A DNA stretch of 64,000 bases, from NCBI GenBank assembly GCA_963765125.1, contig CAVXUZ010000005.1, positions 33,596-97,595 of the forward strand, written 5' to 3'. This document shows positions 4,958-57,492 of this stretch, in pieces. How positions within the stretch are numbered: the stretch's first letter is position 1; each line of letters starts with the position of its first letter. Below the pieces are notes generated by a model. The model saw nothing but the letters and a program-made list of their open reading frames with translations. It had not been told where the DNA came from and searched no databases. The position numbers and the translations under genes are program-made. Source of the DNA: an uncultured candidate division WWE3 bacterium. Lineage in GTDB: Bacteria; Patescibacteriota; WWE3; UBA101185; UBA10185.

Positions 4958-4972
4958 CCTGCTCATTGAACT

Positions 4973-31253: not shown

Positions 31254-31255
31254 AT

Positions 31256-32458
31256 ATGCCAGTTTACGCTTACACTGCCTCAGATACTGCCGGTAATAAA
31301 AGAACAGGTGCAGTTGACGCGCGAAACAGAGAGTTTGCCGTTGGTCTGCTTAAAAACCAAGGTTTATACGTTATTGAACTGCACGAAAAACATGATTCTT
31401 TGATTGATAAACTAGGTCTTTTTGGTAATGTTCCTGAAGGTGAAGTTGTAGCTTTCACAAGACAATTTTCAACAATGATCAGCGCAGGGCTGCCAATTTC
31501 ACGTGCGTTAGACGTTCTATCTTCACAATCAACAAGTAAAGCTCTGAGAAAAGTATTAATCGATGTTTTAAGAGATATTGAAGGCGGTTCTTCACTCTCG
31601 ATGGCGCTTGGTAGATACCCAGACGCGTTTCCTGCTACGTATCAAGCTTTAGTTCGCGCAGGCGAAGCATCCGGTAAGCTCGACGATATTTTAAAACGAC
31701 TCGCTACAACATTAGAAAAACAAAGGGAGCTAAACTCTAGTTTCAAATCGGCGATGATTTATCCGACAATTGTTTTCTTTGCCATGATAGGTGTTTTTGT
31801 GTTAATGATGATATTTGTTATACCAAAACTCGCAGATATGTATGAAAGTTTAAACGTTGAGTTGCCCGCAACAACCCAGATGATGATAGATACTTCAAAC
31901 TTCATTGTAAACAATATCGTAGTTATGATTATTTTATCTCTCGGAGGCATAATCGCCTTAAGATCATTTTTGAAAACAGAAACCGGCCACGAGTTAGTCG
32001 CAGAAATTACATTTAAACTACCAGTTTTTGGAAAAATAAATAAGCAAAAAGAAGTTACAGATTTTACAAGGACGTTAGGTTTGTTAATCGCATCTGCTAT
32101 ACCAATTGTTGAGGCATTAAATATCACTGCTGGTGTTATGAAAAATAAATTTTATCGCGAGGCGGCAATAAACGCAGCGGCTGCTGTTGAAAAAGGTAAC
32201 AAACTTTCGGATTACATCAGATCAAATTCAGTTTTTCCTCCCCTACTCGGGCAAATGACTAGTGTTGGTGAAGAGACGGGGCAACTCGACGAAGTATTAG
32301 ACAGAGTTGCAAACTATTTAGAGGGTGAAGTTGACCACGCAGTAAAAGGGCTATCTTCTGCACTAGAACCAATAATTTTGTTAATGCTGGGCGGGATGGT
32401 TGGGTTCTTGATTATCTCGATTATTACACCGATTTATAAGATTACGAGTGCGCTGTAA
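31256..32458 (+). CDS. pilC: Type IV pilus platform protein PilC (GspF family)
   Basis: Two GspF repeats, each with a cytoplasmic domain plus TM segments (…GLPISRALDVL…; …AIPIVEALNITAGV…). 400 aa. Confidence 0.85.
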   Translation: MPVYAYTASDTAGNKRTGAVDARNREFAVGLLKNQGLYVIELHEKHDSLIDKLGLFGNVPEGEVVAFTRQFSTMISAGLPISRALDVLSSQSTSKALRKVLIDVLRDIEGGSSLSMALGRYPDAFPATYQALVRAGEASGKLDDILKRLATTLEKQRELNSSFKSAMIYPTIVFFAMIGVFVLMMIFVIPKLADMYESLNVELPATTQMMIDTSNFIVNNIVVMIILSLGGIIALRSFLKTETGHELVAEITFKLPVFGKINKQKEVTDFTRTLGLLIASAIPIVEALNITAGVMKNKFYREAAINAAAAVEKGNKLSDYIRSNSVFPPLLGQMTSVGEETGQLDEVLDRVANYLEGEVDHAVKGLSSALEPIILLMLGGMVGFLIISIITPIYKITSAL

Positions 32459-32598
32459 AAAACCAATTATTAGGTTGGTGATTGCAACAACAGTAATTGT
32501 TAGCTTTGCTAATTGGATATAAATCTGTTTAGAATTAATAAGTTGAACGTAATTATTTATTATAAAAATATAATTTTGAAAGGGGGTGTATTAGAACA

Positions 32599-33096
32599 AT
32601 GAGAAATCAAAAAGGTTTTACGCTAGTTGAGCTCTTGGTCGTTATCGCAATTGTCGGTATTTTAGCCGGTGTTGTATTGATCGCAATTAATCCTGCCACA
32701 TTATTGGCAAAAGCGAGAGATTCACAGAGATTGCAAGATATAGATACCATCAACAAGGCAATCGGTTTAGCATTAGCAGACAACGAGGTTACACTCGGTG
32801 CAACTGGTACATGTGCCACCTGCGACAGTTTATCAGGTTCACAGACAGTTGAGGGTGCAAACGGTTGGGTAAAGTTCACAATTCCTACAGGAAAGACTGG
32901 ACTTAGCAAATATATCGCCGCACTTCCTGTTGATCCTACAAACACAGGAGCGTTGGTTTATACATTTGCATCAACTGCAACAGCTTATGAGTTGAATGCA
33001 GTACTTGAGAATGTAGATAACGTAGCAAAAATGACTACAGATGGTGGCGACGACGCCGCAGTTTTCGAAGTGGGAACAAATCTTACTATCCTCTAA
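32599..33096 (+). CDS. pilA: Type IV pilin, probable major pilin (leader MRNQKG|FTLVELLVVIAIVGILAG)
   Basis: Canonical G-F cleavage site and E+5. A very strong Shine-Dalgarno (GAAAGGGGGTG) lies 8 nt upstream. A stem-loop terminator lies immediately downstream. Shares C-terminal blocks with the pilins at 25059 and 48299. Confidence 0.8.
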   Translation: MRNQKGFTLVELLVVIAIVGILAGVVLIAINPATLLAKARDSQRLQDIDTINKAIGLALADNEVTLGATGTCATCDSLSGSQTVEGANGWVKFTIPTGKTGLSKYIAALPVDPTNTGALVYTFASTATAYELNAVLENVDNVAKMTTDGGDDAAVFEVGTNLTIL

Positions 33097-33152
33097 TCAC
33101 CTGTCTAAGATTGGATGATAGTAACGCCCATGTGCACATGATAGCGTTACGT

Positions 33153-33186
33153 GAAAAGCCCTCCTAATCGAGGGCTTTTCTAACTT
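33153..33186 (+). terminator. Rho-independent terminator after the major pilin gene
   Basis: GAAAAGCCCTC-ctaatc-GAGGGCTTTTC is a perfect 11-bp stem followed by a T-rich tail. A second palindrome GTAACGC...GCGTTAC lies at 33121-33150. Confidence 0.6.
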
Positions 33187-33212
33187 TAGAAATATGCTAA
33201 ACTTACTAAGGT

Positions 33213-34097
33213 ATGTTGCAACAAGTATTGTTATACATTTTGGTTTTTGTCTCAGGTCTATTTTTTGGATCATTTTTAAATCTCGTTTCTGATCGAGTAA
33301 CTAAAGGTAAATCAGTTTTATTTGGTAGATCACAATGCGACCATTGTAAAAAACCACTTGGTGCAAAAAATCTTATTCCTGTTGTTTCGTATATTTTACA
33401 AAGAGGAAAGTGTGCAAAGTGCCACAAGAAAATTTCATTTTACTATCCATTTTCAGAAATTCTTACCGGTTTAGCATTTGTTGGTGCTGCAGTTTCAGCA
33501 AGAATCACAGTTTTAGTTAACGTTTCAACAATATTTACATTCATATATCTTCTTGGTGTTGCTAGCTTTTTTATCATCTTGCTTTTAACAGATATGAAAG
33601 AAAGAGTAATCCCAAATAAAATTATTTACCCAGCAATTATTTTTGTTTTCTCATTTTTAATATTAAGCGCAGTAATTTATTTCTACATGTATTACATCCA
33701 ACTTAAAGCTGACACGTTTGGTCAATATTTACTCGACGCTGGAATTATGAAAGTACAAATCTTAAACTCATTAGTCTCTCTGGGAATTTTGATTTTAAGT
33801 TCCCTGGTTATTTCTGCATTCTTTGCGTTTTTAGTTTGGATAACAAAGGGCAGAGGTATGGGAGCTGGCGACATTAGACTCGGATTTTTAATTGGGTTGT
33901 TTAACGGCTATCCATTTAACTTTATCGCAATATTTTTAGGATTTGTCTTGGGAGCCCTAGTAAGTTTGGTTCTAGTTGTTTTAAAGAAAAAGACGATGAA
34001 AGACACAATTGCATTTGGGCCATTTTTAATCTTAGGGAGTGTTGTAGCAATGATCTGGGGAAGCCTAATTTTACAGTGGTATACAAACCTTCTCTAA
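33213..34097 (+). CDS. pilD: Prepilin peptidase / N-methyltransferase PilD (A24 family)
   Basis: N-terminal zinc-binding CDHCKKPL...CAKCHKKI. Catalytic Asp regions (TDMKERVIPN; GAGDIRLGFLIG). 294 aa, polytopic. Confidence 0.85.
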   Translation: MLQQVLLYILVFVSGLFFGSFLNLVSDRVTKGKSVLFGRSQCDHCKKPLGAKNLIPVVSYILQRGKCAKCHKKISFYYPFSEILTGLAFVGAAVSARITVLVNVSTIFTFIYLLGVASFFIILLLTDMKERVIPNKIIYPAIIFVFSFLILSAVIYFYMYYIQLKADTFGQYLLDAGIMKVQILNSLVSLGILILSSLVISAFFAFLVWITKGRGMGAGDIRLGFLIGLFNGYPFNFIAIFLGFVLGALVSLVLVVLKKKTMKDTIAFGPFLILGSVVAMIWGSLILQWYTNLL

Positions 34098-35218
34098 TCT
34101 TTTTTAGGTCGTTTTTTAGATAAAGTAAACCAAAACGTCGATCCCTTACCAACCCCATCAGAAAAGACTCCGATTTTTCCACCCATCGCATCAACAAAAA
34201 GTTTTACGATATAAAGACCAAGTCCCGTGCCCTCTGCTTCTGCAACAGTTTGGTAGGACGAATCTAGCCTTCCGAATTTATGAAATAGTCTTTCTAATTC
34301 ACTTTGTTTAATTCCCCTACCCGTATCAATAATCGAAATTTTTATAAAATCACCAGCGTTTCTGATATCAATTTTTATTTCTCCTTGATCGGTAAATTTC
34401 ATAGAATTTCCAACGAGATTTACCAAAATTTCTCTCAATTTCGATGTGTCGACATACGCATAGTGCTTATTATGCTCGTTTGAAATTGTAAGCTTTAAAC
34501 CTTTTTCGTCTGCTTTAACTTTAAAATCAGAAACAAGTTCTGCAACAGTGTCTACGAGTTCGACGCGGTTAATTACTACGTGAAGTGCGTTTTGTTCAAT
34601 TCGCGAAACACTCAAAATATCGTTGATAAGTTCGATCATTCTCTCGGTACTTAAAATCGCTTTTTTAATATACTCTTTTTGTTTATCGGTAAGAGTTCCG
34701 TGTTTTTCAGAACTAATCATCCACAAATAACTTTTAATAATTGTCATTGGAGTGCGCAGCTCGTGTGAGGCAACAGACAAAAACTCATCTTTGGTTCGTT
34801 CAAGTTCTTTGATTTTTGTAATATCAGATATTGTGATTAGGCTTTCCTCTTGCCCCTCACCAAGTTCAATAACTGCAGTCTTTACCTCTACTCGATATTT
34901 ATTGCCTTTTGCTAAAAGGATGATGTCTGCAATATGACTATGTTTTGAACTTTTCTTAAAGCAAAAGCTTTCTGGGCTTACCGGAGAATTATCAGTTGAA
35001 TAAAGCTCTAATAAGTCGTGAACTCCAGCTCCGATGGCGTTTTCTTTTTTTACACCGAATTGCTCCTCAGCAGCTTTATTGAAAAGAGTAATTTTATAAT
35101 GTTTATTTACAGCAAGAATTGATTTTGAGATAGCATCAATAATTTGCTCAATACTTGCCTTGTGAGAATTATTTTTGGTCAAACTTTCAATATTGGGCAT
35201 TAAAACTATTTTACACAA
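34094..35218 (-). CDS. Sensor histidine kinase with a PAS domain (cytoplasmic; HisKA plus HATPase_c)
   Basis: PAS block (ITLFNKAAEEQFGVKKENAIGAGVHDLLELY). H-box SHELRTPMTIIKSY. N/G boxes (NLVGNSMKFT; DTGRGI; GTGLGLYIVK). The track start is TTG at 35218; an alternative ATG start lies at 35200. Confidence 0.8.
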   Translation of the reverse strand: MCKIVLMPNIESLTKNNSHKASIEQIIDAISKSILAVNKHYKITLFNKAAEEQFGVKKENAIGAGVHDLLELYSTDNSPVSPESFCFKKSSKHSHIADIILLAKGNKYRVEVKTAVIELGEGQEESLITISDITKIKELERTKDEFLSVASHELRTPMTIIKSYLWMISSEKHGTLTDKQKEYIKKAILSTERMIELINDILSVSRIEQNALHVVINRVELVDTVAELVSDFKVKADEKGLKLTISNEHNKHYAYVDTSKLREILVNLVGNSMKFTDQGEIKIDIRNAGDFIKISIIDTGRGIKQSELERLFHKFGRLDSSYQTVAEAEGTGLGLYIVKLFVDAMGGKIGVFSDGVGKGSTFWFTLSKKRPKKD

Positions 35219-35248
35219 AAAAATATTTTGGTATATACTAGAAATACT

Positions 35249-35635
35249 ATGGAAGAAAACATTACAAAGAAAAAAACCGTACTTTTAGTTGAGGACGAAG
35301 TAGATTTAGTAGATTTATACACAGAAATATTAAACGAAGCGGGTTACGATGTACTCCCCTCTTATGACGGTGAAGATGGAATTTATAAAGTAAAAAATGA
35401 AAAATGGGATTTGTTACTTTTAGATATTATGCTCCCAGAAAAAGATGGTATGGCTGTACTTGAAGAAATGCAAAAAACTGAGGCCTCAAAAAAGGGACCG
35501 GTGGTGCTACTCACAAACCTAAACAGTGAAGATCTCATAGAACGTGCATACAAACTAGGTGCCGATGACTATTTAATCAAATCAGAAATTTCGTTAGACG
35601 ATATTGTTAAAAAAGTAAAACAGTATCTTAGTTAA
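35249..35635 (+). CDS. Single-domain response regulator (receiver only), divergent from the histidine kinase
   Basis: VLLVEDEVDLVDLYTEIL...DLLLLDIMLPEKDGMAVLEEMQ...VVLLTNL...K. Start taken at ATG 35249 (MEENITKKK); the track uses TTG 35228. The stop overlaps the start of the next gene. Confidence 0.8.
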   Translation: MEENITKKKTVLLVEDEVDLVDLYTEILNEAGYDVLPSYDGEDGIYKVKNEKWDLLLLDIMLPEKDGMAVLEEMQKTEASKKGPVVLLTNLNSEDLIERAYKLGADDYLIKSEISLDDIVKKVKQYLS

Positions 35636-36171
35636 TGTTTAAGCTTAGTAAAAAAAGAATCACAATTATTTTATTTGTTATTGTCATTTTGGCAATTACC
35701 ACAGCCGCCGTCATTTTTATACTTCCAAAGATAACAAATAAAAAAAGTGTAGTTAGAGATCAGCCAATTGCATACGAGGACACTAAAGACACAATTGTTC
35801 CCGAAGAAGCAGCAGCGTTGATAGAGTTAAATGCAATTTTAGATCCTGAAACCGACTATTGGGCAGACTGGAGCTGGCAAGCAAAATATGCAGAGTTTAT
35901 CATAAGCAATTTAAGTGTTGCTGATAATTACATTGTTGGCTACATTAGCAGACCGGTGGCGTTATCGAATAATAATGCGCAGATAGTAAAACACCCGTTA
36001 TGTGATCCTACAAAGTCGATTGCGGTTTCCAAAGATGATCCACTTAGAGGTATAAATGCAAAAGGCTTTGAATTTATGCAACGTGCAAGCTCTGGAGATA
36101 TTTTCTACACCAATTGTTTAGACGAGGAGTGTTTTAACATTGGCAATAACTGTGTCTTAGTAGAATTTTAA
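35635..36171 (+). CDS. Membrane-anchored small secreted protein, member 1 of a C-x3-C-x6-C C-terminal motif family
   Basis: N-terminal signal-anchor KRITIILFVIVILAITTAAVIFIL. C-terminus ...ASSGDIFYTNCLDEECFNIGNNCVLVEF. Clear paralog of the 40272 gene and related to 36174. Confidence 0.6.
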   Translation: MFKLSKKRITIILFVIVILAITTAAVIFILPKITNKKSVVRDQPIAYEDTKDTIVPEEAAALIELNAILDPETDYWADWSWQAKYAEFIISNLSVADNYIVGYISRPVALSNNNAQIVKHPLCDPTKSIAVSKDDPLRGINAKGFEFMQRASSGDIFYTNCLDEECFNIGNNCVLVEF

Positions 36172-36173
36172 AA

Positions 36174-36749
36174 ATGAAAAAATTAATAAACAAAAAAATA
36201 TTACGAATCTTATTAATAATACTTGGCGTTATATTGCTGGGCTTTATAGTTAGCCCATTTATTTTTAGTAAACGAGTAGAAATTAATGAGTTTGACCAGA
36301 TTTATATAAAGAGTAATAGATTTGTTTTACCTAAATTAATTTCAATAGAAAAAAGACAAGATATCGGGGTTAAAGAGGCAGGTTTAATCAAAACCGAAAT
36401 TATCTCTCCTGAGGGTAAAACTGGTATTAACGAACTTTCTTATTGGGATACGTGGACTTGGAACACAAAATTGGTAAAACTAGAAATCTTAAGAGTTTCT
36501 GTTGAAAGCGGTAATGTTTACGCAAGTCTATTACTTCCTGCCGAGTCGAGTGGGTTGTCACCAGAAAAAGAGTACGAAATCAAATGCAGTGTTGATGAAA
36601 CATCTGTTATTTATTTTCGTGATCCAGCTAATCGCAACGATGAGTATAAACCAGCGATTGAACTGTTAGCGTCCGGTGACCTGTTCTACGCATATTGTTT
36701 GGATTCTCAATGTAGTTCTCTTGGTCGACGCTGTATTATTGAGCGCTAA
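36174..36749 (+). CDS. Membrane-anchored small secreted protein, member 2 of the C-x3-C-x6-C family
   Basis: Signal-anchor ILRILLIILGVILLGFIV. C-terminus ...LASGDLFYAYCLDSQCSSLGRRCIIER. Confidence 0.55.
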   Translation: MKKLINKKILRILLIILGVILLGFIVSPFIFSKRVEINEFDQIYIKSNRFVLPKLISIEKRQDIGVKEAGLIKTEIISPEGKTGINELSYWDTWTWNTKLVKLEILRVSVESGNVYASLLLPAESSGLSPEKEYEIKCSVDETSVIYFRDPANRNDEYKPAIELLASGDLFYAYCLDSQCSSLGRRCIIER

Positions 36750-36772
36750 AAACTACCTTTAGTTTAAGGTAC

Positions 36773-36811
36773 CCCATAGTTGATATTTGCCACATAATTT
36801 GAGACAATCCA
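36773..36811 (+). promoter_or_regulatory. Conserved upstream element CCCATAGTTG-N16-TGAGACAAT, copy 1 of 4 (upstream of the 36855 lipoprotein gene)
   Basis: Same bipartite motif as at 40866, 41465 and 42179. Confidence 0.4.
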
Positions 36812-36854
36812 ATTAAACTTAAATAACCCGAAAAAACAATAAAAAGGAGGCAAA

Positions 36855-37748
36855 ATGAAGACTAAGTTTTTTTCAGGGTCTTGGCTATTTAGCCGCACTT
36901 TAAAAACTCTAATTCTCGTACTACTTATTACGTCAGTTGTTATGACAATACTTATCGGCTGTACGCCTGCGACGTCAGTTCTAGTCGTAGAACCGATTGT
37001 AACTACAAACACACCGCTAATAGAGATTGTTGGCGAGTCGACAGCTACAGCAGTACCTACGGCTACCCTATTTCCGACCATGGTTGTTACGCCCGAGCCA
37101 ACTACAATGCCAGAAAATTTTGGGTGGCCCATCTTACAAGAAATGCCTTACGGTGAGGAACGTGCAGAGATTGAGGCTTCGCTTGCAAAGGACCCTAACC
37201 TTGTAAAAGGAACTCCCTCTGAGAATGAGCGGTTCATGATTGCTGATGTATGGGGTTTATGGCCACTTCTTTATAATCCAAACACAGGGATGTTACCTGA
37301 CTATTCAAATAAAAGTCTTCCAGATGACCTTTACAGTTATCTGAATGTTTGGTATAGAGGCAGTCATAAATTTTATGTCGACACCGGAACAAGTGGTAAC
37401 CCGGCGATGTTTGCAGAACAACTAGACGGTAATCTACCGATAATGTTTAAATACCCATTTGTGGTGTATGAATATGCAAATAGCACGTCGAGTAGTCTTT
37501 GCCAGTTTTTCGAAGCCGGAACGTTAGCCGGCTATGGATTGGGTGAAGAGACTGTCGATGGGCAGCCAAGTGACATACCAACCGGAATCGCATATCTGGT
37601 TGAAAGGTTTGGTGATTCTAAAATCATCAATGATGCAGACAGGCTGTACTGTAGTAACTTTGATCCTGTCTCAAACGACTTCTTAACCATAGCAAAGGCA
37701 AAAGGTTACGATACTATAGTTGCACAGGTTTTGGAAAAGCTCAAATAA
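36855..37748 (+). CDS. Putative lipoprotein or secreted protein (297 aa), unknown function
   Basis: Strong SD (AAAAAGGAGGCAAAATG). Signal peptide with lipobox-like LIGC. Thr/Pro-rich linker. An upstream CCCATAGTTG...TGAGACAAT motif is shared with the 40949, 41548 and 42261 genes. Confidence 0.5.
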   Translation: MKTKFFSGSWLFSRTLKTLILVLLITSVVMTILIGCTPATSVLVVEPIVTTNTPLIEIVGESTATAVPTATLFPTMVVTPEPTTMPENFGWPILQEMPYGEERAEIEASLAKDPNLVKGTPSENERFMIADVWGLWPLLYNPNTGMLPDYSNKSLPDDLYSYLNVWYRGSHKFYVDTGTSGNPAMFAEQLDGNLPIMFKYPFVVYEYANSTSSSLCQFFEAGTLAGYGLGEETVDGQPSDIPTGIAYLVERFGDSKIINDADRLYCSNFDPVSNDFLTIAKAKGYDTIVAQVLEKLK

Positions 37749-37847
37749 AATAATCGAGAATTAGAAAATTATTAAGTAACACCCTCAGTCACTTTGAGGG
37801 TGTTTTTTATTGTTATTCTATAAATAATCGTTTAGTATTAATAAGTA

Positions 37848-40097
37848 GTGAACAATACTTCACCTTGCCTAAAACTTAATACCATATTATTAATCCGTTT
37901 GTTAATTTTTATTACTAGTGCTTTTTTACTTTCATTTGCTACAAAAAACGTTATTTACGCAGGCTGCGCCGCAAACGAATGTGACGGACCAGGTGAATAC
38001 GAGTGCGAGAATGGAACGATGTGCTGTACAGGCGGCGGATGTCCATCAAACAGATGTCCAGCCAACTGCACTGCTAGAATTTATTCGGGTTATTGGACGT
38101 GTAATTGTACACTATCAAGAGAGGTATGTTCCATTCCTACACCGTATGATTGTGAGCCTTGCATTACTGAAAGGGTGTGTGGACCAGAGACAACATGTGG
38201 TTATGTGAGTAGTTCAACATGTGCACAATGGGCTACCCGTTCTTACCCATGTCGACAAAAGACATGTTGGTATAATTATTGTTGGTACACTTGGGGCACA
38301 TGCAAGTCAACATACTGTGCAAGATACTATCAGGTTTGGCGCTGCTCAACCACAGACGTTTGCAAAAATGTTAAAAATTGTAGTACTTGCTACAAAAAAA
38401 ATTGCTTCATAGAGTACTACGAAGATCAAACAACCTACACCGCTAGAGGTACATGTAAATACTGTACACAGGGTGGCGGCGGGGGTGGTGGCTCTTGCAC
38501 AACTAACCCAACTGCGCCTACTTTAAATACCCCATTTGAAGGTTCGTCAATGCAAGGTAGTCTAGCAATTGATTTTAGCTGGAATGCCCCGACAAGTTGG
38601 GGGGCTAATTGTACGCCCGCAAGTTACTTTCTAATGGTTGATGACGAGAGTAGTTTTACAGACCCCCGAGTGCACAGCGTGTCGTACCCAACTTCGACTA
38701 CATCACAAACCGTTACAATGCCGGGAGAAGATACTTATTTTTGGAGAGTTCAGGCGTGTAATCAACGCGGCTGTACCTCATCTGTCACGAGGTCATTTAA
38801 CTTTAGTTGCGGTATAGCTCCTGGTAGAGCAACTAACCCATCGCCGTCAGATGGTGCGACCGACGTTACTATTGCACCAACACTATCATGGGATGGCCCA
38901 TCAGATTGGGGTTCAGCATGTGGTATGAACAACAACAATAGATTCACAGTTTACGGTCAGGTTAAAAATGGAGTATGTGAGGGTCCAGGTTCTGGCTATT
39001 CTGCAATACCTTCTTGTACAAATTTACCTGAGGGTACGACATCTTGTATAGACCCATTTTTCAACACCAGCAGTACCCCTTACTGTTGGTATGTTTCCAC
39101 AAACAACGGTACAGAGACGACGCTTTCTGCCTCTACTGCTGATGAAGTATGGGAGTTTAGAACAGAAGAGCCCATCACTTATACAAATTGGGTTACTGCA
39201 TTGTTTGGTGATTTTTATGCAGGAGGTTTAACCGAGCAATACCCAAGCACAACACGCTATGTGACGCCTTGGAATCCTCCATATGCAGCATATGAAAAAG
39301 AACCTACCTCCTCTGATGAGCCAAACGTAGCACTTATCACAAGCAATGATACGGATATAACAAATGATAATGGTGCTAATGAATACAATCCCGGATCTCA
39401 ATCAAATCTATCAGTTGAATTTGCTAACTTTGAAGAAACATGGCCTGCAAGCTACCGCGGTACTCCCCCAGCTTCAGCTATTAATTTACCTTTAAATGGA
39501 GGCTCTTGTTCAGATATCTTCACAGGTAGTACAAAGCTTGATCCTTACGAAGTATATGAAGCTGATGCAAGCTGTATGTCAGAAGCAATCAATGCAGTTG
39601 ATGGTAACCCCAATGGCTATTCACTAGCCTCAGACGGTTATACAGTTATCTTTGTTACAGGAAGCACAAACCTTGAAATAGACAGTCCATTTACCACATC
39701 AAATGATGATTACCGTGTGGTATTTGTTACTGGACCTAATGTTTCAGTACAGATAGATAGAAACTTAAAGTTAGCAACCGATCCTGATTTTAACAGTGAG
39801 CCTTTAATTGAAGCTGCCTTTATCGTTACCAAAGACTTAACCATTGAGGGTGCTGCTAACGATTCATCTATAGACCTAACTACTGATCCAGATGGTTCAA
39901 TTATGGTTGAGGGTCCACTTATCGCAAGAACAGTAAACTTTAACAGAAACAGAGGTCTAACTAATCAATATCCATCAGAGATTGTTAAATACAATCCTAA
40001 CTACATATATAACCTAACAGAACAAGAAAGAACCTCTCTAAAAAACAATGGTTCAGGCCTGTTTGTTATTGATATTACTTGGATGAATGTAGACTAG
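37848..40097 (+). CDS. Giant secreted protein 1 (749 aa): signal peptide, extremely Cys-rich module, Gly7 linker, two FN3-like domains, and a conserved C-terminal domain shared with the 43554 gene
   Basis: About 40 Cys in residues 38-218 (CAANECDGPGEYECENGTMCC...CKYCTQGGGGGGGSC). FN3-like repeats with the W...Y.W.VQACN..GC...TRSF pattern. C-terminal 261 codons nearly identical at the DNA level to 44931-45714. Confidence 0.7.
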   Translation: MNNTSPCLKLNTILLIRLLIFITSAFLLSFATKNVIYAGCAANECDGPGEYECENGTMCCTGGGCPSNRCPANCTARIYSGYWTCNCTLSREVCSIPTPYDCEPCITERVCGPETTCGYVSSSTCAQWATRSYPCRQKTCWYNYCWYTWGTCKSTYCARYYQVWRCSTTDVCKNVKNCSTCYKKNCFIEYYEDQTTYTARGTCKYCTQGGGGGGGSCTTNPTAPTLNTPFEGSSMQGSLAIDFSWNAPTSWGANCTPASYFLMVDDESSFTDPRVHSVSYPTSTTSQTVTMPGEDTYFWRVQACNQRGCTSSVTRSFNFSCGIAPGRATNPSPSDGATDVTIAPTLSWDGPSDWGSACGMNNNNRFTVYGQVKNGVCEGPGSGYSAIPSCTNLPEGTTSCIDPFFNTSSTPYCWYVSTNNGTETTLSASTADEVWEFRTEEPITYTNWVTALFGDFYAGGLTEQYPSTTRYVTPWNPPYAAYEKEPTSSDEPNVALITSNDTDITNDNGANEYNPGSQSNLSVEFANFEETWPASYRGTPPASAINLPLNGGSCSDIFTGSTKLDPYEVYEADASCMSEAINAVDGNPNGYSLASDGYTVIFVTGSTNLEIDSPFTTSNDDYRVVFVTGPNVSVQIDRNLKLATDPDFNSEPLIEAAFIVTKDLTIEGAANDSSIDLTTDPDGSIMVEGPLIARTVNFNRNRGLTNQYPSEIVKYNPNYIYNLTEQERTSLKNNGSGLFVIDITWMNVD
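39267..40050 (+). repeat. 784-bp intragenomic direct repeat, copy 1 (partner at 44931-45714); in-frame coding sequence
   Basis: Base-by-base comparison of the printed lines. The copies are identical except two adjacent third-position synonymous differences at 39956-39957 (ggtcta versus gggtta). Confidence 0.85.
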
Positions 40098-40271: not shown

Positions 40272-40802
40272 ATGCCCGTTAAAGATTACATACAAAAGAA
40301 AAAATTCTCCGTCACCATACTTCTGATAGTTATTGTTGTAACACTAATTACTGTAGGTTTCGTAATGCCGCTCATCACCAACCCAGAAAAAAAAGTTGCT
40401 AAAGATACAAAGACAACGCAAGTTGGAAAACTAGACGCAAACATGTTGCCATCAGAATTTGTAAAAGCGTTTTCAGAAGGGTCAATGTATTTTAAAAATT
40501 GGAACTGGCATGACAAAATGGTGCAAGTCATAATTACAGACTCAAGCGTTAGTGAAGATTCGATGGCAGGCTACATCAGAAACCTAACTGATAAATTTCC
40601 TGACAGAGAAAACAGAAGATTTTTTAACTCGTGCACGCCTGAACAAACTTTTGCTGTGTCTAACGTCAACCCAACTAAAAGCGTTTTAGCAAAAGGTTTT
40701 GGTTTAGTGAGCCGTGCCTCTGCGGGAGACATCTTATATACGTACTGTCTTGACGAAAACTGTGTAAACCTCGGCAAGAGCTGCGTGCTGATTGAATTTT
40801 AA
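40272..40802 (+). CDS. Membrane-anchored small secreted protein, member 3 of the C-x3-C-x6-C family
   Basis: Signal-anchor FSVTILLIVIVVTLITVGFVM. C-terminus ...ASAGDILYTYCLDENCVNLGKSCVLIEF. About 45% identical to the 35635 product over the C-terminal half. Confidence 0.6.
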   Translation: MPVKDYIQKKKFSVTILLIVIVVTLITVGFVMPLITNPEKKVAKDTKTTQVGKLDANMLPSEFVKAFSEGSMYFKNWNWHDKMVQVIITDSSVSEDSMAGYIRNLTDKFPDRENRRFFNSCTPEQTFAVSNVNPTKSVLAKGFGLVSRASAGDILYTYCLDENCVNLGKSCVLIEF

Positions 40803-40865
40803 ATAATCCCCTACTTTATGTTTTTTGGTTTGGTGATTTTTTTTGCGTCGGTGGATAACCGATAG

Positions 40866-40902
40866 CCTATAGTTGATTTTTATGCTGAAAATGTGAGTTA
40901 AT
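40866..40902 (+). promoter_or_regulatory. Conserved upstream element CCTATAGTTG-N17-TGAGTTAAT (putative promoter/operator), copy 2 of 4
   Basis: The same bipartite motif with the same spacing occurs at 36773, 41465 and 42179, each about 45-60 nt upstream of a secreted-protein gene. Confidence 0.45.
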
Positions 40903-40948
40903 CCTTATCAATTGTATGTGCTCAGTCAATACCGCAAAGGAGGTACAA

Positions 40949-41386
40949 ATGGCTGTTAAGAATGGCTCGGCTGTATTTGTTGTTGTGAGCGTTTTATTAC
41001 TGGTTATGGTACTTGTAGTGACGATTGTTTATATAACATTAAAACTTACTGCACCGATTGAGTTAAGGAGCTTTACGGACGTAACTGACAAAGTTATCTC
41101 TGGAGAGATTGTTTGCGCCCCATTGGGAGACGCGCAGTTAGAAAGAACAAGACTTGGTCTAAAATCAGGTCGCACCACTATAGTAAATCAACTCTACCCG
41201 AGTCATAACGTGTCAGTGGCATGTTCCTTTCTTGTGGTGCTCGAGTCAGCTAATCCAGAAGTAGTTACGATCGTTTATTACAAAAAAGGTGGAGTTAGGG
41301 TAGTGGAGAGGGTTTTAATAGACCCGCGGAATGCAGCGCAACTCTGGAAAAATGCTAAACCGGTAAATGGTAACTTAAATTTATAA
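40949..41386 (+). CDS. Small secreted/membrane-anchored protein, tandem paralog A (146 aa)
   Basis: Start at the ATG preceded by AAAGGAGGTACAAATG, which is the identical RBS context of the 42261 gene. Signal-anchor AVFVVVSVLLLVMVLVVTIVYI. Conserved blocks VISGEIVCAPLGD and VVTIVYYKKGGVRVVERVLIDPRNAAQLWKNA are shared with the 41548 and 42261 products. Confidence 0.55.
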   Translation: MAVKNGSAVFVVVSVLLLVMVLVVTIVYITLKLTAPIELRSFTDVTDKVISGEIVCAPLGDAQLERTRLGLKSGRTTIVNQLYPSHNVSVACSFLVVLESANPEVVTIVYYKKGGVRVVERVLIDPRNAAQLWKNAKPVNGNLNL

Positions 41387-41401
41387 ATTGTAGATTTGTT
41401 A

Positions 41402-41440
41402 GTCCCCATCTCTTTCACCAAGATGTGGGGATTTAATTTG
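41402..41440 (+). terminator. Stem-loop terminator after paralog A
   Basis: TCCCCATCTCTTTCACCAAGATGTGGGGA followed by TTTAATTTG. Confidence 0.4.
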
Positions 41441-41464
41441 TTTGATAGCCCAACACAAATAGTA

Positions 41465-41500
41465 CCTATAGTTGCACTTAGCAAAGATTTATGAGTAAAT
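41465..41500 (+). promoter_or_regulatory. Conserved upstream element CCTATAGTTG-N17-TGAGTAAAT, copy 3 of 4
   Basis: Same motif and spacing as at 40866 and 42179. Confidence 0.45.
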
Positions 41501-41547
41501 AGCATCAAGATAAATCCGTATATTCCACATCAAGGAAGGAGGGAAGA

Positions 41548-42099
41548 GTGGCTACAAATAACAACTTTAGTAAGGTTGTAGTTTTAATGCTTGCTGTGCT
41601 ACTGGTTGCTGTTTCAGGTTGTAATGAGACTCAGGCAAGTGTTTCACCGACCGTTGAACCAACTCTGGCACCAACGATCGTGATTAAAAATATTGCTACA
41701 ACGACGCTGCCACCAACTACCAAGCCCACGTTAGTACCAACACCTTCGGAGGAACTTGGGTCAACATCAACACCAATAGCTGTAGTAGAAATTAGATCAC
41801 TAGATGAATTGATTACTACTGTTAATAATGAAGTTATTGCTGGTGCACCCATCTGTGGAACACCCAAACTTGGGGATTCAGGAGTAACGTTATCTAACGG
41901 TTTTAAGTACTTAAGCTTAAAAACAAAAGTGTTTCCGGATTTAGAAAAAATACTTTGCCAGTACCTTATTATTATGCCAAATGAGCATACTCCAACTGTT
42001 ACAGCAGTATATTTAAGAGATGGTGTGTACCTACTTGAAAATGTAAAGATCGAAAAGAGCCTATTAAATGATTTTTGGAAAAAAGGTTTAACTGAGTAG
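41548..42099 (+). CDS. Lipoprotein, tandem paralog B (183 aa); GTG start
   Basis: Signal peptide with lipobox LLVAVSGC. Thr/Pro-rich linker. C-terminal domain VIAGAPICGTPKLGDSGVTLSNGFKYLSLKTKVFPDLEKILCQYLIIMPNEHTPTVTAVYLRDGVYLLENVKIEKSLLNDFWKKGL is homologous to the 42261 product. Confidence 0.55.
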   Translation: MATNNNFSKVVVLMLAVLLVAVSGCNETQASVSPTVEPTLAPTIVIKNIATTTLPPTTKPTLVPTPSEELGSTSTPIAVVEIRSLDELITTVNNEVIAGAPICGTPKLGDSGVTLSNGFKYLSLKTKVFPDLEKILCQYLIIMPNEHTPTVTAVYLRDGVYLLENVKIEKSLLNDFWKKGLTE

Positions 42100-42120
42100 T
42101 AAACACCTAAGTCGCAATCA

Positions 42121-42162
42121 AACCCCACCTTACTTTTTAAGAAGATGGGGTATTTTTTTAAA
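42121..42162 (+). terminator. Stem-loop terminator after paralog B
   Basis: AACCCCACCTTACTTTTTAAGAAGATGGGGT followed by ATTTTTTT. Confidence 0.45.
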
Positions 42163-42178
42163 AAGCATTTTAACATGC

Positions 42179-42214
42179 CCTATAGTTGCAAATTTACCTA
42201 AAATATGAGTAAAT
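42179..42214 (+). promoter_or_regulatory. Conserved upstream element CCTATAGTTG-N17-TGAGTAAAT, copy 4 of 4
   Basis: Reads as TTGCAA-N17-GTAAAT (sigma70-like) preceded by the conserved CCTATAG. Confidence 0.45.
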
Positions 42215-42260
42215 AACAACAGAACAAATCAACGCAAACAATACCATAAAGGAGGTACAA

Positions 42261-42764
42261 ATGAATGCGAAAAATAACCACACTAAGGTTATGGTTGTTG
42301 TTATTGTTATAGTAGCAATACTGGTCATGGGTTATACCACAGCAGACGCAGGGTATCTTCTGACAGGAAAAAATACTCTGGGATCCAAGGTTGCGCGGAG
42401 CTCAGTGTCGTCTTCGATGGCTGATTCCACCTTGATGTTCTTGCCAATATCCCTAGACGAGAAAATTGATTCTATCGCAGAAGATGTAATTGCTGGAAAG
42501 ACAGTATGCGGTGATCCAGGAGCTGACTTAACAGCCATGAAGTTTGACTCTGGATACAGATACGTAAGATGGCATGTAACAAAGTTTCCGGAGTACAAAC
42601 AGGTGATGTGTAAACTCATTGTTGTGCTACCGTCAGAAAAGTCGTCCACTGTTTTTGTTGTATATTTAAACAACGGCGATTACACGGTTAGTGAGGCCCT
42701 TGTTGATTCCAAAATACTTAAATCTTTTTGGAAAAGAAGTCTATTGATAACCACAGAATCTTGA
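42261..42764 (+). CDS. Secreted/membrane-anchored protein, tandem paralog C (167 aa)
   Basis: RBS AAAGGAGGTACAAATG. Signal-anchor VMVVVIVIVAILVMGY. C-terminal domain VIAGKTVCGDPGADLTAMKFDSGYRYVRWHVTKFPEYKQVMCKLIVVLPSEKSSTVFVVYLNNGDYTVSEALVDSKILKSFWKRSL. Confidence 0.55.
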   Translation: MNAKNNHTKVMVVVIVIVAILVMGYTTADAGYLLTGKNTLGSKVARSSVSSSMADSTLMFLPISLDEKIDSIAEDVIAGKTVCGDPGADLTAMKFDSGYRYVRWHVTKFPEYKQVMCKLIVVLPSEKSSTVFVVYLNNGDYTVSEALVDSKILKSFWKRSLLITTES

Positions 42765-42770
42765 TAGGAG

Positions 42771-42810
42771 ATCCCCACTTCAATTTTATTGGACTGGGGA
42801 TTTACTTTAT
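42771..42810 (+). terminator. Stem-loop terminator after paralog C
   Basis: ATCCCCA-cttcaattttattggac-TGGGGAT has a perfect 7-bp stem and is followed by TTACTTTAT. Confidence 0.45.
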
Positions 42811-42811
42811 G

Positions 42812-42840
42812 TTGACATAGGTGAACAATAATTACATAAT
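42812..42840 (+). promoter_or_regulatory. Sigma70-like promoter TTGACA-N17-CATAAT ending 6 nt before the GTG/ATG start of the 42847 gene (possible leaderless transcript)
   Basis: Consensus -35 TTGACA at 42812-42817. 17-nt spacer. -10 CATAAT at 42835-42840. Confidence 0.5.
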
Positions 42841-42846
42841 TTTACT

Positions 42847-43575
42847 GTGATGAATGTATTGCCCAAAAGAAACGCCATCCTGGTAAGTGTAATTATAATC
42901 TTGTTTACTCTAACGCTATTATCCATCGTGCCGTACTTAACGTTAAGAAGCTACATCAAAAGAAATGTTGATAAAAATATAGAATATGTGTTTTACGTTG
43001 AGGTAGAAGATTCATTAAAAAATTCAAAATATCCAAATCTTGCGACTTGGTACCTAAGTAAGGTACAGAACTTTTATAAAGCAGTACTTAATAGGGAGTT
43101 TCTTGTAGAGCTACCTGATTATAATACTGTTTTTCAAGCCTACGACTACACCGAATACCCAGCTGTATTTTTGGTCAAGAATTATGACTTACCAACAGAC
43201 GAGATAAGTATTGAATTTGTAATGCCCACTGATTTTGCTGAATTTACAGCAGTAGCAAAGTTGAACTGCGGTAAGGCAACAACGCGTGCTGGTGTATACA
43301 GTGCTAGCCAGCAAACCGAGAAATGGGCAATACTCAAGGAGTTACGACAGAGTAATCTTAGCGAAGAAGACAGGTTTACTTTGATTGGTAAATTATATCG
43401 CGCAATTCCGTTTGAAGAACAGCTATCAGTGGAAAATGGTGTTGGCCAGACAATTCAGGAGATGCTGGAGCGATCAGAAATAACACAGGACAAAAGGCAG
43501 CTAAAATTGGTAACAACTTGTAGAGAGGACCAGTGTGACAATACCTCTGAGCAATGTATTCTGTACATTCAATAA
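42847..43575 (+). CDS. Membrane-anchored secreted protein (242 aa), divergent member 4 of the C-x3-C-x6-C family; overlaps the start of giant protein 2 by 22 nt
   Basis: Signal-anchor AILVSVIIILFTLTLLSIV. C-terminus ...KLVTTCREDQCDNTSEQCILYIQ. Confidence 0.55.
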   Translation: MMNVLPKRNAILVSVIIILFTLTLLSIVPYLTLRSYIKRNVDKNIEYVFYVEVEDSLKNSKYPNLATWYLSKVQNFYKAVLNREFLVELPDYNTVFQAYDYTEYPAVFLVKNYDLPTDEISIEFVMPTDFAEFTAVAKLNCGKATTRAGVYSASQQTEKWAILKELRQSNLSEEDRFTLIGKLYRAIPFEEQLSVENGVGQTIQEMLERSEITQDKRQLKLVTTCREDQCDNTSEQCILYIQ

Positions 43576-45761
43576 ATATGAAAATTAATAAAAACTATAC
43601 TAATAAGAGTGCCTTACCTTTTGTAGCGTCATTGTTTCTTGCGTGTGTTATTTTGTTTAGTCCTGTTGCCGATGCAAAAATTTACAATCCTAAACCAAAA
43701 CCTGGAAAATATATTAACTGGGACAGAGTTTACAAAGAGAGAATAAATAAAATTCATGAGAAGGATGCCAAGATGGCGGCGACTTACGCAAGACTGGCAG
43801 CTAAAAACCCAGATAAGCTGAGAGATTTAATCGATACATGGGCAGCAAACAAAGGTATTACTCATGATCAGTTTAATGTCTGGGAGGTAAAGAATCTTTA
43901 TTCAATAATCTCGGGAGGAAGCGTTGTCCTTGGTAGCTTTGGGCCGTCTGCGGACTATGAGTTTATTGTCAGCGATGACGGCACAAAGATGTATTGGAGT
44001 GACGCCACCGGCGGTTATACAAGTATAACTGTACCTGCGCGTTACACTACAGTATCAGGTCAGTATGCGTCATATAATTCATCAACTGGTGTTGTTTGTT
44101 ACAGTTGGATTGGTTGTACTATACCAACTACCGCATCTAATGGAAATACAAACAATGGATGTAGTGGGCTACCTACGGCGCCACCACTTGTTAGTCCCCT
44201 CAACGGTGCAACAATCTTTGAGAATAAAACGATTAGTTTTCAGTGGGGTGCACCCACTGGGTGGGGTACAAACTGTCCAACTCATGTATATAGGCTACAA
44301 GTTGACGACGAAAACACGTTTAGTGAGCCTTCTGCTTTAGATTCTGGTTTTGATGGTAGTACAACCTCAACGACAGCAGATTTTACTTTAAATAAAGAGT
44401 ACTTTTGGAAAGTTCAAGCTTGTAACGCAAAAGGATGCACCCCCTCTGTAACAAGATCATTCATACTTGGTTGCGGTATCGCTCCAGGAGTTGCATCAAA
44501 CCCAACACCTTCAGACGGTGCAATAGATGTAGTTATTGCACCAACACTGTCTTGGGATGGTCCATCCGATTGGGGCTCAGCATGCGGTATGGATAACAAT
44601 AATACATTTACGGTATACGGTCAGGTTAAAAATGGACTGTGTGAAACTCCAGGCCCAGGTTATTCTGCAATTCCAACTTGTACAAACCTCTCTGAAGCAT
44701 CAACATCTTGTGTAGATCCATTCTTTAACACTCGAAGCACACCATATTGCTGGTATGTAGGAACAAACAATGGAACAGAAAGTAATACGTCAGCAGCAAC
44801 AGCTGACCAAGTATGGGAGTTTAGAACTGAAGACCCCCTTCTCTTTGAAAACTGGGTAACCACACTTTTTGGTGATTTTTATGCAGATACTCTTGCAGAA
44901 CAATATCCTAAATCAGCAAACTACGCATCCCCTTGGAATCCTCCATATGCAGCATATGAAAAAGAACCTACCTCCTCTGATGAGCCAAACGTAGCACTTA
45001 TCACAAGCAATGATACGGATATAACAAATGATAATGGTGCTAATGAATACAATCCCGGATCTCAATCAAATCTATCAGTTGAATTTGCTAACTTTGAAGA
45101 AACATGGCCTGCAAGCTACCGCGGTACTCCCCCAGCTTCAGCTATTAATTTACCTTTAAATGGAGGCTCTTGTTCAGATATCTTCACAGGTAGTACAAAG
45201 CTTGATCCTTACGAAGTATATGAAGCTGATGCAAGCTGTATGTCAGAAGCAATCAATGCAGTTGATGGTAACCCCAATGGCTATTCACTAGCCTCAGACG
45301 GTTATACAGTTATCTTTGTTACAGGAAGCACAAACCTTGAAATAGACAGTCCATTTACCACATCAAATGATGATTACCGTGTGGTATTTGTTACTGGACC
45401 TAATGTTTCAGTACAGATAGATAGAAACTTAAAGTTAGCAACCGATCCTGATTTTAACAGTGAGCCTTTAATTGAAGCTGCCTTTATCGTTACCAAAGAC
45501 TTAACCATTGAGGGTGCTGCTAACGATTCATCTATAGACCTAACTACTGATCCAGATGGTTCAATTATGGTTGAGGGTCCACTTATCGCAAGAACAGTAA
45601 ACTTTAACAGAAACAGAGGGTTAACTAATCAATATCCATCAGAGATTGTTAAATACAATCCTAACTACATATATAACCTAACAGAACAAGAAAGAACCTC
45701 TCTAAAAAACAATGACTCAGGTCTGTTTGTTGTTGATGTTACTTGGATTAGCGACGAATGA
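43554..45761 (+). CDS. Giant secreted protein 2 (735 aa): signal peptide, non-Cys-rich N-terminal domain, FN3-like domains, and the same conserved C-terminal domain as the 37848 gene
   Basis: Signal peptide ALPFVASLFLACVILFSPVADA. The FN3-like region is 70-85% identical to protein 1. The C-terminal 261 codons (44931-45714) are nearly identical in DNA to 39267-40050. Confidence 0.7.
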   Translation: MYSVHSINMKINKNYTNKSALPFVASLFLACVILFSPVADAKIYNPKPKPGKYINWDRVYKERINKIHEKDAKMAATYARLAAKNPDKLRDLIDTWAANKGITHDQFNVWEVKNLYSIISGGSVVLGSFGPSADYEFIVSDDGTKMYWSDATGGYTSITVPARYTTVSGQYASYNSSTGVVCYSWIGCTIPTTASNGNTNNGCSGLPTAPPLVSPLNGATIFENKTISFQWGAPTGWGTNCPTHVYRLQVDDENTFSEPSALDSGFDGSTTSTTADFTLNKEYFWKVQACNAKGCTPSVTRSFILGCGIAPGVASNPTPSDGAIDVVIAPTLSWDGPSDWGSACGMDNNNTFTVYGQVKNGLCETPGPGYSAIPTCTNLSEASTSCVDPFFNTRSTPYCWYVGTNNGTESNTSAATADQVWEFRTEDPLLFENWVTTLFGDFYADTLAEQYPKSANYASPWNPPYAAYEKEPTSSDEPNVALITSNDTDITNDNGANEYNPGSQSNLSVEFANFEETWPASYRGTPPASAINLPLNGGSCSDIFTGSTKLDPYEVYEADASCMSEAINAVDGNPNGYSLASDGYTVIFVTGSTNLEIDSPFTTSNDDYRVVFVTGPNVSVQIDRNLKLATDPDFNSEPLIEAAFIVTKDLTIEGAANDSSIDLTTDPDGSIMVEGPLIARTVNFNRNRGLTNQYPSEIVKYNPNYIYNLTEQERTSLKNNDSGLFVVDVTWISDE
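44931..45714 (+). repeat. 784-bp direct repeat, copy 2 (partner at 39267-40050)
   Basis: See copy 1. Identity breaks exactly at both ends (g/c before, g/a after). Confidence 0.85.
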
Positions 45762-45974: not shown

Positions 45975-46841
45975 ATGATAAAAAAATACAATACTGCTCT
46001 AAAAGAATCAGAAAAAGGACAAGCGTTGCTTTTTGTTGTAGTCGCTATGACAATTGCTTTGTCTATTGGAATTAATTCAAGTGTCAGAACACTTACCTCC
46101 CTGTCAAGAACTTCAAGATCAGACACGGCCTCAAGAGCTTTAGCTGCAGCAGAGGGCGGCATTGAGAGATATCTTGCACTCTCTACAACCGAACTAGAGA
46201 GTACGATTACTGGCAATTGCGCAGCAGGAACTTATGATCAAACAGCAGAAGCTTGCCTGATAGAGTTTGATGCTTCTTCTGATGCAATTGTTTCTCAAGC
46301 TCACGTTACTGTGCAAAGATACGAACCAGATTTCTATCCCTTTGATTTAGAGAGTGGCCAAGTTAAAGAAGTGAATCTTTATGATTACAACAGCGGTAAT
46401 CATTACGGTGCTTCTACTGTCGAAGTTTGTTGGAATTCAAAACCACAATCAGAGTTAATGTATATTGCATACAAAGACTCCGGTATTAGTGCTCGTGGTG
46501 GTCTTACCGGTTCAAACGCACCAGATGCTCCTTACAGCAGCAAAGGTTTTGAAAGCGCAGGACCGGGCAGAGACGGATACGCTAACTGCAAAACTATAGA
46601 TATAACTAATGATGTTTACGGGCTGAGAATTAGATCTGTTGGTGATGCTTCTAGCGTTGCAGTGTTCCCTACCGGCAATGAGAGACTCCCTCTTCAAGGT
46701 TATACAATTAAATCTATTGGAAGAATACAACAGGACCAAGGCGTTACCGCTACGAGAACAATTAGCATTATAAGAAGTCTAGCTTATCTCCCTGTAAGCT
46801 TTGACTATGCGTTATATTCAGAGGGCTCGATTACTAAATAA
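45975..46841 (+). CDS. PilX-like minor pilus protein (PilX_N-type N-terminus, no prepilin cleavage site)
   Basis: MIKKYNTALKESEKGQALLFVVVAMTIALSIGINSSV...ASRALAAAEGGIE. Paralog of the 50417 gene (shared C-terminal FDYALYS / FDYALFQ). Confidence 0.6.
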   Translation: MIKKYNTALKESEKGQALLFVVVAMTIALSIGINSSVRTLTSLSRTSRSDTASRALAAAEGGIERYLALSTTELESTITGNCAAGTYDQTAEACLIEFDASSDAIVSQAHVTVQRYEPDFYPFDLESGQVKEVNLYDYNSGNHYGASTVEVCWNSKPQSELMYIAYKDSGISARGGLTGSNAPDAPYSSKGFESAGPGRDGYANCKTIDITNDVYGLRIRSVGDASSVAVFPTGNERLPLQGYTIKSIGRIQQDQGVTATRTISIIRSLAYLPVSFDYALYSEGSITK

Positions 46842-46848
46842 TCTGACC

Positions 46849-47298
46849 ATGCCCAAAAATCAATATCTAAAAACACAAAGTGCCTTTACGCTAATCGAAC
46901 TGTTAATTGTTATTTCTGTTGTTGGCATATTATCCGGAGTTTTGGTAAATGTTATAGATTCGAAAGGTCAAAAAAATAAAGCACTAGACAGTGTTCATCG
47001 AAAAGACATAAACGATTTAGCAGTTTCAATCGAGTCTTACAGGACAGCAGAAGGTTCATACCCCGATGAGGGAACAGAAAACAACCCTCTTGACCCCAGC
47101 GCGTCTACGAGAAATACTGCCGCGGTTTATATAACAGAGTGGCCAGTGGGTGTTATTTATATAAAAAACGATCCTGATTTTGCAATTTATATTCAAAAAG
47201 AAGCTGATACAAATTTTATAAAGTATAATTCGGTGTGGAGAGAATTCAGAGAGTGCGCTGATACAACAAATCCAACCAGTATTACCGACTGTGATTAA
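46849..47298 (+). CDS. Type IV (minor) pilin
   Basis: Start moved to the internal ATG. Leader MPKNQYLKTQSA|FTLIELLIVISVVGILSGV with E+5. Confidence 0.7.
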   Translation: MPKNQYLKTQSAFTLIELLIVISVVGILSGVLVNVIDSKGQKNKALDSVHRKDINDLAVSIESYRTAEGSYPDEGTENNPLDPSASTRNTAAVYITEWPVGVIYIKNDPDFAIYIQKEADTNFIKYNSVWREFRECADTTNPTSITDCD

Positions 47299-47734: not shown

Positions 47735-47790
47735 AGAATATTTCACTCTCCTACCTTGACACCGCAACGCTAAAATCTCATACTTAATCT

Positions 47791-48799: not shown

Positions 48800-48825
48800 A
48801 AAAGTATAAGTGTTAGAATTTTAGT

Positions 48826-49864: not shown

Positions 49865-49865
49865 A

Positions 49866-51226: not shown

Positions 51227-51249
51227 TTTAATTAAGGTAACATTTTCTT

Positions 51250-52281: not shown

Positions 52282-52284
52282 TCG

Positions 52285-57362: not shown

Positions 57363-57492
57363 GGTGCGGGAGGATGGATTCGAACCACCATTTCCGTGCG
57401 AAGTTGGTTCAACATGGGCATTAAGGCCTGATACGCCAGAACACACTCGGCATGTTAACTACCACGGCGCCTTACCACTAGGCCACTCTCGC
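57363..57492 (-). tRNA. Atypical tRNA-like gene (130 nt): canonical acceptor, D and T arms, with a roughly 57-nt insertion within the anticodon loop; isotype undetermined
   Basis: Acceptor GCGAGAG/CTCCCGC (one A:C mismatch). T8. D-arm GCCT-AGTGGTA-AGGC. Anticodon stem CCGTG...CACGG separated by 64 nt. Variable loop AAAT. T-arm GGTGG-TTCGAAT-CCATC. Discriminator A plus CC. Confidence 0.45.

Follow-up and report, generated by a model that had tools for sequence, protein, structure and literature searches.

Within a type IV pilus (T4P) locus of an uncultured candidate division WWE3 bacterium, two tandem genes, here called A and B, share a 784-bp tract that is nearly identical at the nucleotide level and is embedded in anciently diverged homologous sequence. 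We analysed a 64-kb stretch of this genome (positions 33,596 to 97,595 of contig CAVXUZ010000005.1, assembly GCA_963765125.1; hereafter the window, G+C ~38%); coordinates given below count from its first nucleotide. Recent non-reciprocal homologous recombination between A and B is well supported as the source of the tract, provided that the assembly is correct. We further consider it probable that A and B are old tandem paralogues of the candidate phyla radiation (CPR) within a T4P locus, that they underwent a recent conversion and that they encode PilY1-like modular secreted proteins. The elements concerned are as follows.

37848-40097, + strand: gene A, 749 aa, GTG start
43554-45761, + strand: gene B, 735 aa, with a PilX-like gene next downstream
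39267-40050, + strand: copy 1 of the conversion tract (A residues 474-735), 782/784 against copy 2
44931-45714, + strand: copy 2 of the conversion tract (B residues 460-721)
38736-39266, + strand: old, unconverted homologous flank of A, with its partner in B at 44400-44930
39162-40094, + strand: conserved C-terminal domain of A, 311 aa, with the B equivalent at 44826-45758

Between 39267-40050 and 44931-45714, 782 of 784 bases match at a fixed offset of 5664 nt, which confirms the near-identical repeat described in the first-pass annotation; the end points of the matching run are exactly 39267 and 40050, and its chance probability is ~1e-105, given that the homologous flank next to it is 72.5% identical. 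Self-BLAST of the window recovered the tract pair as the sole internal repeat (E < 1e-10), the full alignment joining 38736-40084 to 44400-45748 (88.8% identity, 1350 nt). The two differences are neighbours in the hexamer 39954-39959 (GGTCTA versus GGGTTA). Both are synonymous, as had been stated, but they do not lie at 39955-39960, nor do both fall on third positions: GGT>GGG alters the third codon position and CTA>TTA the first. The tract had also been taken as the C-terminus of two giant proteins. It does lie within the C-terminal domain of both, but its 3′ end is 47 nt short of the stop codon, making it an internal patch, and the proteins have a modest 749 and 735 aa.

Nei-Gojobori estimates of synonymous (dS) and non-synonymous (dN) divergence set the tract apart from its surroundings.

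39267-40049, tract: dS 0.011, dN 0, 99.7% nucleotide identity
531 nt directly upstream of the tract: dS ~1.6-1.7, dN 0.17, 72.5% nucleotide and 75% amino-acid identity
Last 42 nt of the genes: dS 0.33, dN 0.23, 79% nucleotide identity

Third-codon-position identity is 0.33-0.63 in the upstream flank and 1.0 inside the tract, and divergence returns beyond the 3′ end of the tract, in the final 47 nt and in the DNA downstream; the sharp breaks reported earlier at both ends are therefore real, but the profile is a step and not the gradient that had been proposed. Old homology thus stands on both sides of the tract (72.5% upstream, 79% over the last 42 nt). Because dS is 0.011 in the tract against ~1.7 upstream, recent recombination fits the pattern and selection does not: purifying selection on the protein cannot remove synonymous differences and is therefore not the cause of the identity. 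A recent partial duplication is excluded because the patch is internal to older homology, with an identity drop on its 3′ side and old divergence on its 5′ side. Constraint at the nucleotide level, from an overlapping gene, an RNA or a regulatory element, was also rejected, since the tract holds no sizeable alternative open reading frame (ORF; none exceeds a minus-strand stop-to-stop frame of 84 codons) and no Rfam match, and since the paralogues of locus L001, the only other complete tandem pair found, are without such conservation. The dS contrast and the position of the patch inside both genes accordingly uphold the earlier proposal of a recent gene conversion or recombination.

The same observations bear on an assembly or polishing artefact, in which truly diverged C-termini would owe their identity to a collapsed repeat, a chimeric path or consensus polishing with multi-mapped reads. 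The window is part of one 482-kb contig that was seen once, and long exact repeats are a classic trouble spot for assemblers; however, each copy lies in frame within unique and different flanks, identity switches from ~72% to 100% within a few bases at both ends, a change that polishing cannot yield, and two adjacent differences were kept, so the copies are not one consensus pasted twice. We regard such an artefact as very unlikely.

If the assembly is right, a recent conversion copied 784 bp from one gene onto the other, which reset synonymous divergence there to ~1% and left the remainder of the region shared by A and B saturated at synonymous sites. The best-conserved region would offer the longest identical stretches from which recombination could start, so that no dedicated variation machinery would be needed. 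The conversion mechanism itself is ordinary, textbook concerted evolution. Conversion between paralogues is exemplified by babA/babB of Helicobacter pylori, pilC1/pilC2 and opa of Neisseria, and tufA/tufB of Salmonella. As in those cases, two complete paralogues carry a near-identical, sharp-bordered block with near-zero synonymous divergence inside it and old divergence around it; the present pair differs in that both its lineage (CPR/Saccharibacteria) and its gene family are new, in being a tandem pair 5.66 kb apart and in having a single event visible.

Whether such homogenisation recurs, or is programmed, can be judged from the other members of the family. The C-terminal domain is carried by nine distinct loci, with two copies in the window and in L001. 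In L006, the locus of the closest relative (P0003), the contig ends within the start of a second gene (4880-5140), which is preceded by an s-s-x gene unit (the 's' family is described below) and codes for a signal peptide as well as a Cys-rich head with MCCTGNGCPS; tandem pairs are therefore present in at least three lineages (the window, L001 and L006). An identical repeat was considered as the cause of the L006 contig break and discarded, the two heads being only 75% identical over 89 nt. The L001 paralogues are 69.5% identical over 2.1 kb, with third-position identity of ~0.3-0.7 throughout and no tract.

Programmed adhesin or antigenic variation, in which frequent conversion would shuffle heads onto a constant tail, could draw on the variable heads borne on a constant tail throughout the family, on the recurrence of tandem pairs in these three lineages and on the finding that within-genome paralogues are mutually closest, which fits repeated conversion or independent duplications. 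Yet the window contains no silent or partial cassettes: its single repeat pair lies in two complete ORFs with signal peptides, the spacer between them consists of five ordinary genes, and no G-quadruplex (G4) motif (G3+N1-7 x4) occurs on either strand. Nor is a third copy known from beyond the window: among 5.8e9 proteins, only P0001 and P0002, each a one-member cluster, are more than 52% identical to A. The tract falls in the constant domain and made no new head-tail combination, and the L001 pair lacks a tract altogether. In the pilE/pilS system of Neisseria, vlsE of Borrelia and MgPar of Mycoplasma, variable segments are moved from silent cassettes into one expression site. The likeness to these systems is that of homologous, non-reciprocal recombination in surface-protein genes; in A and B both genes are complete and it is the constant part that was copied, the reverse of cassette logic. 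Programmed variation is thus highly improbable, and the comparison with antigenic- or adhesin-variation cassettes made in the first-pass annotation is not supported. Its suggestion that homogenisation may be ongoing likewise finds no support, the L001 pair being saturated at synonymous sites over its full length. One recent event is documented here, not a dedicated or ongoing mechanism.

A milder form of recurrence would be adaptive concerted evolution, in which the tails are repeatedly re-matched to a single PilX-like/minor-pilin tip complex as the heads diverge. One adjacent PilX-like gene does serve two family members, and in the unconverted middle region A and B are 76% and P0004 and P0005 79% identical, against at most 61% to any other member. 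That within-genome paralogues appear closest to each other may, however, reflect independent duplications or occasional older conversions alike, and independent duplications explain the tree equally well. The L001 tails, which presumably both work with one PilX-like protein, are 76% identical and saturated at synonymous sites, and a single event in a single genome cannot show selection. We consider adaptive re-matching conceivable but doubtful.

The two proteins that carry the tract share a layout beneath unrelated heads. A has a Sec-type signal peptide, a Cys-rich head (~38-216), two FN3/Ig-like modules (~216-440) and a C-terminal β-solenoid domain (439-749); B has a signal peptide, a head (1 to ~205) unrelated to that of A, two FN3/Ig-like modules and a C-terminal β-solenoid domain (425-735). 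By BLASTP, A 207-746 and B 193-732 are 80.6% identical. The signal peptides were recognized by inspection of alignments as a hydrophobic N-terminal segment whose end, immediately preceding the head, shows A-x-A-like sites, and the two tandem mid-protein modules align to proteins carrying FN3/Ig domains. The contrast between the heads drawn in the first-pass annotation stands: that of A contains 28 Cys in residues 38-216 and a MCCTGGGCPS motif common to the closest relatives (P0003-P0006), and P0013 matches 98% of the N-terminal part of A, whereas no relative was found for the head of B, a weak negative since the search with this head alone missed even B itself. Neither protein has a Pfam or NCBIfam match, nor do the small genes around them, and a sequence-profile search of the PDB gave none. 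Upstream of A, a strong terminator-like hairpin (37778-37804; a stem of 11 bp, then a T-run) is found 44 nt before the GTG start, and gene A may accordingly begin its own transcription unit; promoter-like sites were no commoner than in shuffled sequence and support no inference on separate transcription.

A and B belong to an unannotated family, of which we found no description in the literature. Neither had an exact match in the contig index. Only five other close homologues were present among 5.8e9 proteins, and metagenome and genome scans returned only distant relatives; those in genome collections come from metagenome-assembled genomes (MAGs) of Candidatus Saccharibacteria and from one WWE3 MAG. 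A profile of the last 311 residues retrieved 176 cluster representatives among 1.84e9 proteins, and the domain sits at the extreme C-terminus in 130/130 proteins containing its end. The N-terminal parts vary in length and content, with CBM60, Big_7, FN3/Ig, PKD-like, Hint and GBS Bsp-like modules; P0014 and P0015, for example, have 59% identity in the tail and a head coverage of only 22%. A constant C-terminal domain under variable, modular heads is thus the architecture of the whole family, and the constant module inferred earlier from this one pair, a putative stalk or anchor, extends to all of it.

Modelled with AlphaFold2 from a 39-sequence alignment, the C-terminal domain reached a predicted local distance difference test (pLDDT) score of 90.8; this domain model was used because the full-length model, from a 7-sequence alignment, was unusable (pLDDT 39.5). 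The domain is predicted to be a triangular β-solenoid of the ice-binding-protein/ComZ type with a packing helix, and gave the following fold-match scores.

ComZ of Thermus thermophilus (6qvi_A; 203 residues aligned): 11.2
DUF3494 ice-binding proteins: 9.3-11.0
Two-partner-secretion domains and tapirins: 5-6

The last ~20 residues, with a conserved SGLFVIDVxWxxEE, have low model confidence. The domain is acidic (pI 4.05, net charge -30; family median -25). ComZ, the best fold match, shows 12% identity and no sequence-level relationship. It is a tip-located competence pilin that binds DNA and whose large solenoid was reported to be most similar to the ice-binding protein FfIBP (PMC6561018). The modelled domain shares with ComZ a β-solenoid of the ice-binding-protein type, but in ComZ (PDB 6qvi) the solenoid is inserted in a GspK-like pilin domain with an N-terminal hydrophobic helix, whereas in A and B it is free-standing and C-terminal, after a Sec signal, a head and FN3-like modules; because the pilin domain is absent, A and B are not ComZ-like pilins. 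As for the DUF3494 fold, neither A, B nor any of 39 family members matched Pfam Ice_binding (only sub-threshold matches to DUF7305 were returned), and the context gives no hint of ice binding. The tapirins of Caldicellulosiruptor, whose genes adjoin its T4P locus, are like A and B secreted and encoded beside such a locus, and have a C-terminal β-helix domain (10.1101/359786).

The genomic context places A and B in the middle of the pilus machinery. The locus runs through PilB, PilT, PilC, the major pilin and PilD to a histidine kinase and response regulator, small genes and gene A, and continues with five small genes, gene B, a PilX-like gene, minor pilins, a second PilX-like gene, PilM, PilN and PilO.

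28420-34097, + strand: PilB, PilT, PilC, major pilin and PilD (Pfam T2SSE/MshEN, T2SSE, N_methyl, Peptidase_A24)
35635-37748, + strand: upstream unit of two 's'-family genes (35635-36171, 36174-36749) and a 297-aa gene (36855-37748)
40272-43575, + strand: five spacer genes between A and B (from ORFs and BLASTP paralogy; no Pfam match)
40272-40802, + strand: 's'-family small protein of the spacer
40916-41386, 41548-42099 and 42261-42764, + strand: three tandem 't'-family paralogues of the spacer
45975-46841, + strand: PilX-like gene, 288 aa (from its N-terminal motif and position)
46801-53755, + strand: minor pilins, second PilX-like gene, PilM, PilN and PilO (NCBIfam/Pfam N_methyl/T2SSG/PilO; synteny with L002)

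PilC was assigned via synteny with L002, where T2SSF is present. The slot that family members take in the T4P locus is the same in the window, L001, L002/L007, L004, L009/L010 and L011, and a PilX-like gene is next 3′ of the family member in all seven loci with visible downstream DNA (N-terminus GQALLFVVVAMTIALSIGINASVRT..SLSRT.RTDTASRALAAAEGGIERYL), at a distance of 213 nt in the window and of 1-20 nt in those relatives whose genes were called. The PilX-like gene has no Pfam match, its name resting on the N-terminal motif and gene position; that N-terminus is highly conserved (GQALLFVVVAMTIALSIGIN.SVRT..SLSRT.R.DTASRALAAAEGGIERYL). Across Saccharibacteria and WWE3 loci, the N-terminal 50 residues of the first PilX-like protein are nearly invariant. 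The two PilX-like paralogues of the window (45975-46841 and 50417-51226; 29% identity) bracket the minor-pilin genes.

This arrangement recalls PilY1, which has a type I signal peptide, an N-terminal part of low conservation and a C-terminal domain of high conservation, the latter sitting on PilX at the pilus tip with the variable N-terminal domain at the extreme tip (PMC7541494). With the PilY1/PilC proteins of Pseudomonas, Neisseria and Myxococcus (PilY1.1-1.3), A and B share a type I rather than a prepilin signal, a gene position beside pilX in the minor-pilin cluster, a variable N-terminal part and the presence of several paralogues with different heads per genome (PMC7541494). The C-terminal domain of PilY1/PilC is a β-propeller, whereas that of A and B is a predicted β-solenoid with no Pfam PilC/PilY1 match, and their tip location and PilX docking are putative; because the propeller is absent, A and B are not members of the PilY1 family. 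We infer instead that they are adhesins associated with the tip in the manner of PilY1, with a C-terminal fold of another kind. [quoted passage not shown] The DNA-binding activity of the best fold match (PMC6561018) and the natural competence of Saccharibacteria (PMC10633639) speak for such a role, but the strong acidity of the domain and of its family fits DNA binding poorly, the ComZ pilin domain is absent, and CBM60 and other glycan-binding modules in the heads point to the heads as the ligand binders. We think a ligand-binding solenoid unlikely.

Several points nevertheless weigh against the joint reading of A and B as recently converted, PilY1-like proteins. Its functional part would follow from guilt by association and fold resemblance; A and B have no pilin-like N-terminus, no prepilin motif and no Pfam PilY1/PilC domain; and it is the solenoid itself that binds the ligand in ComZ, tapirins and ice-binding proteins, which would reverse the roles of anchor and head. 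On the side of the conversion, its direction is not readable because A and B are equidistant from the nearest outgroup, P0003; the L001 tails, 76% identical without homogenisation, indicate that identical tails are not required; and a small residual possibility of assembly or polishing error attaches to the tract.

The neighbouring genes invite further observations. Between PilD and the adhesin-like genes lie a histidine kinase (34094-35218, minus strand) and a response regulator (35228-35635); with the same arrangement in L001, L002 and L009, these are a conserved two-component system of the pilus locus. The upstream s-s-297-aa unit also precedes the single family member in relatives. Proteins of the 's' family (~176-220 aa) combine a membrane helix at the N-terminus with a Cys motif at the C-terminus (C..E.C...G..C.L.EF), lack a Pfam match and are also encoded at 40272-40802 in the window, 7872-8954 in L002, 2459-3646 in L006 and 17148-17810 in L001. 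The three 't'-family proteins of the spacer (156, 183 and 167 aa; 30-32% identity) each carry a membrane helix at the N-terminus, and no counterpart was seen in the loci of relatives. The last spacer gene (242 aa, 42847-43575) overlaps the start of B at 43554 by 22 nt, which suggests translational coupling; the C-terminal Cys pattern of its product loosely recalls the small-protein family, with no BLAST similarity. Farther downstream, an element adjoining tRNA-Ile (57365-57492, minus strand) matched the Rfam tRNA model over 128 nt for a 71-position model without an ARAGORN call, and may represent a tRNA that contains an intron or is unusual in some other way.

CPR bacteria, Saccharibacteria among them, spend their lives attached to bacterial hosts, T4P have been implicated in host recognition (PMC11623550, PMC10633639), and in oral Saccharibacteria the large accessory pilins PilX1 and PilX2 have been proposed as tip adhesins (PMC11623550). 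The tract shows that homologous recombination is active between paralogues in a reduced CPR genome, and its two copies, as 784-bp direct repeats 5.66 kb apart, would be a substrate for RecA-type deletion or amplification of the head of B together with the five spacer genes. It is a tentative possibility that the family comprises CPR-specific, non-pilin tip adhesins docking on the conserved PilX-like protein, analogous in function to PilY1 but with a solenoid like that of ComZ and ice-binding proteins; the two heads of this genome would then have one docking module in common, with tails that conversion keeps fitted to the single tip complex, and the repeats would permit reversible loss or amplification of the second head; if true, this would give an epibiont a switchable host-recognition repertoire. 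The value of the tract is that it flags an unannotated family with the layout expected of exchangeable tip adhesins and closely tied to PilX-like and minor-pilin genes. A role of this family as a host-recognition component of CPR pili is plausible, and it offers a testable candidate for host-specificity determinants in environmental Saccharibacteria.

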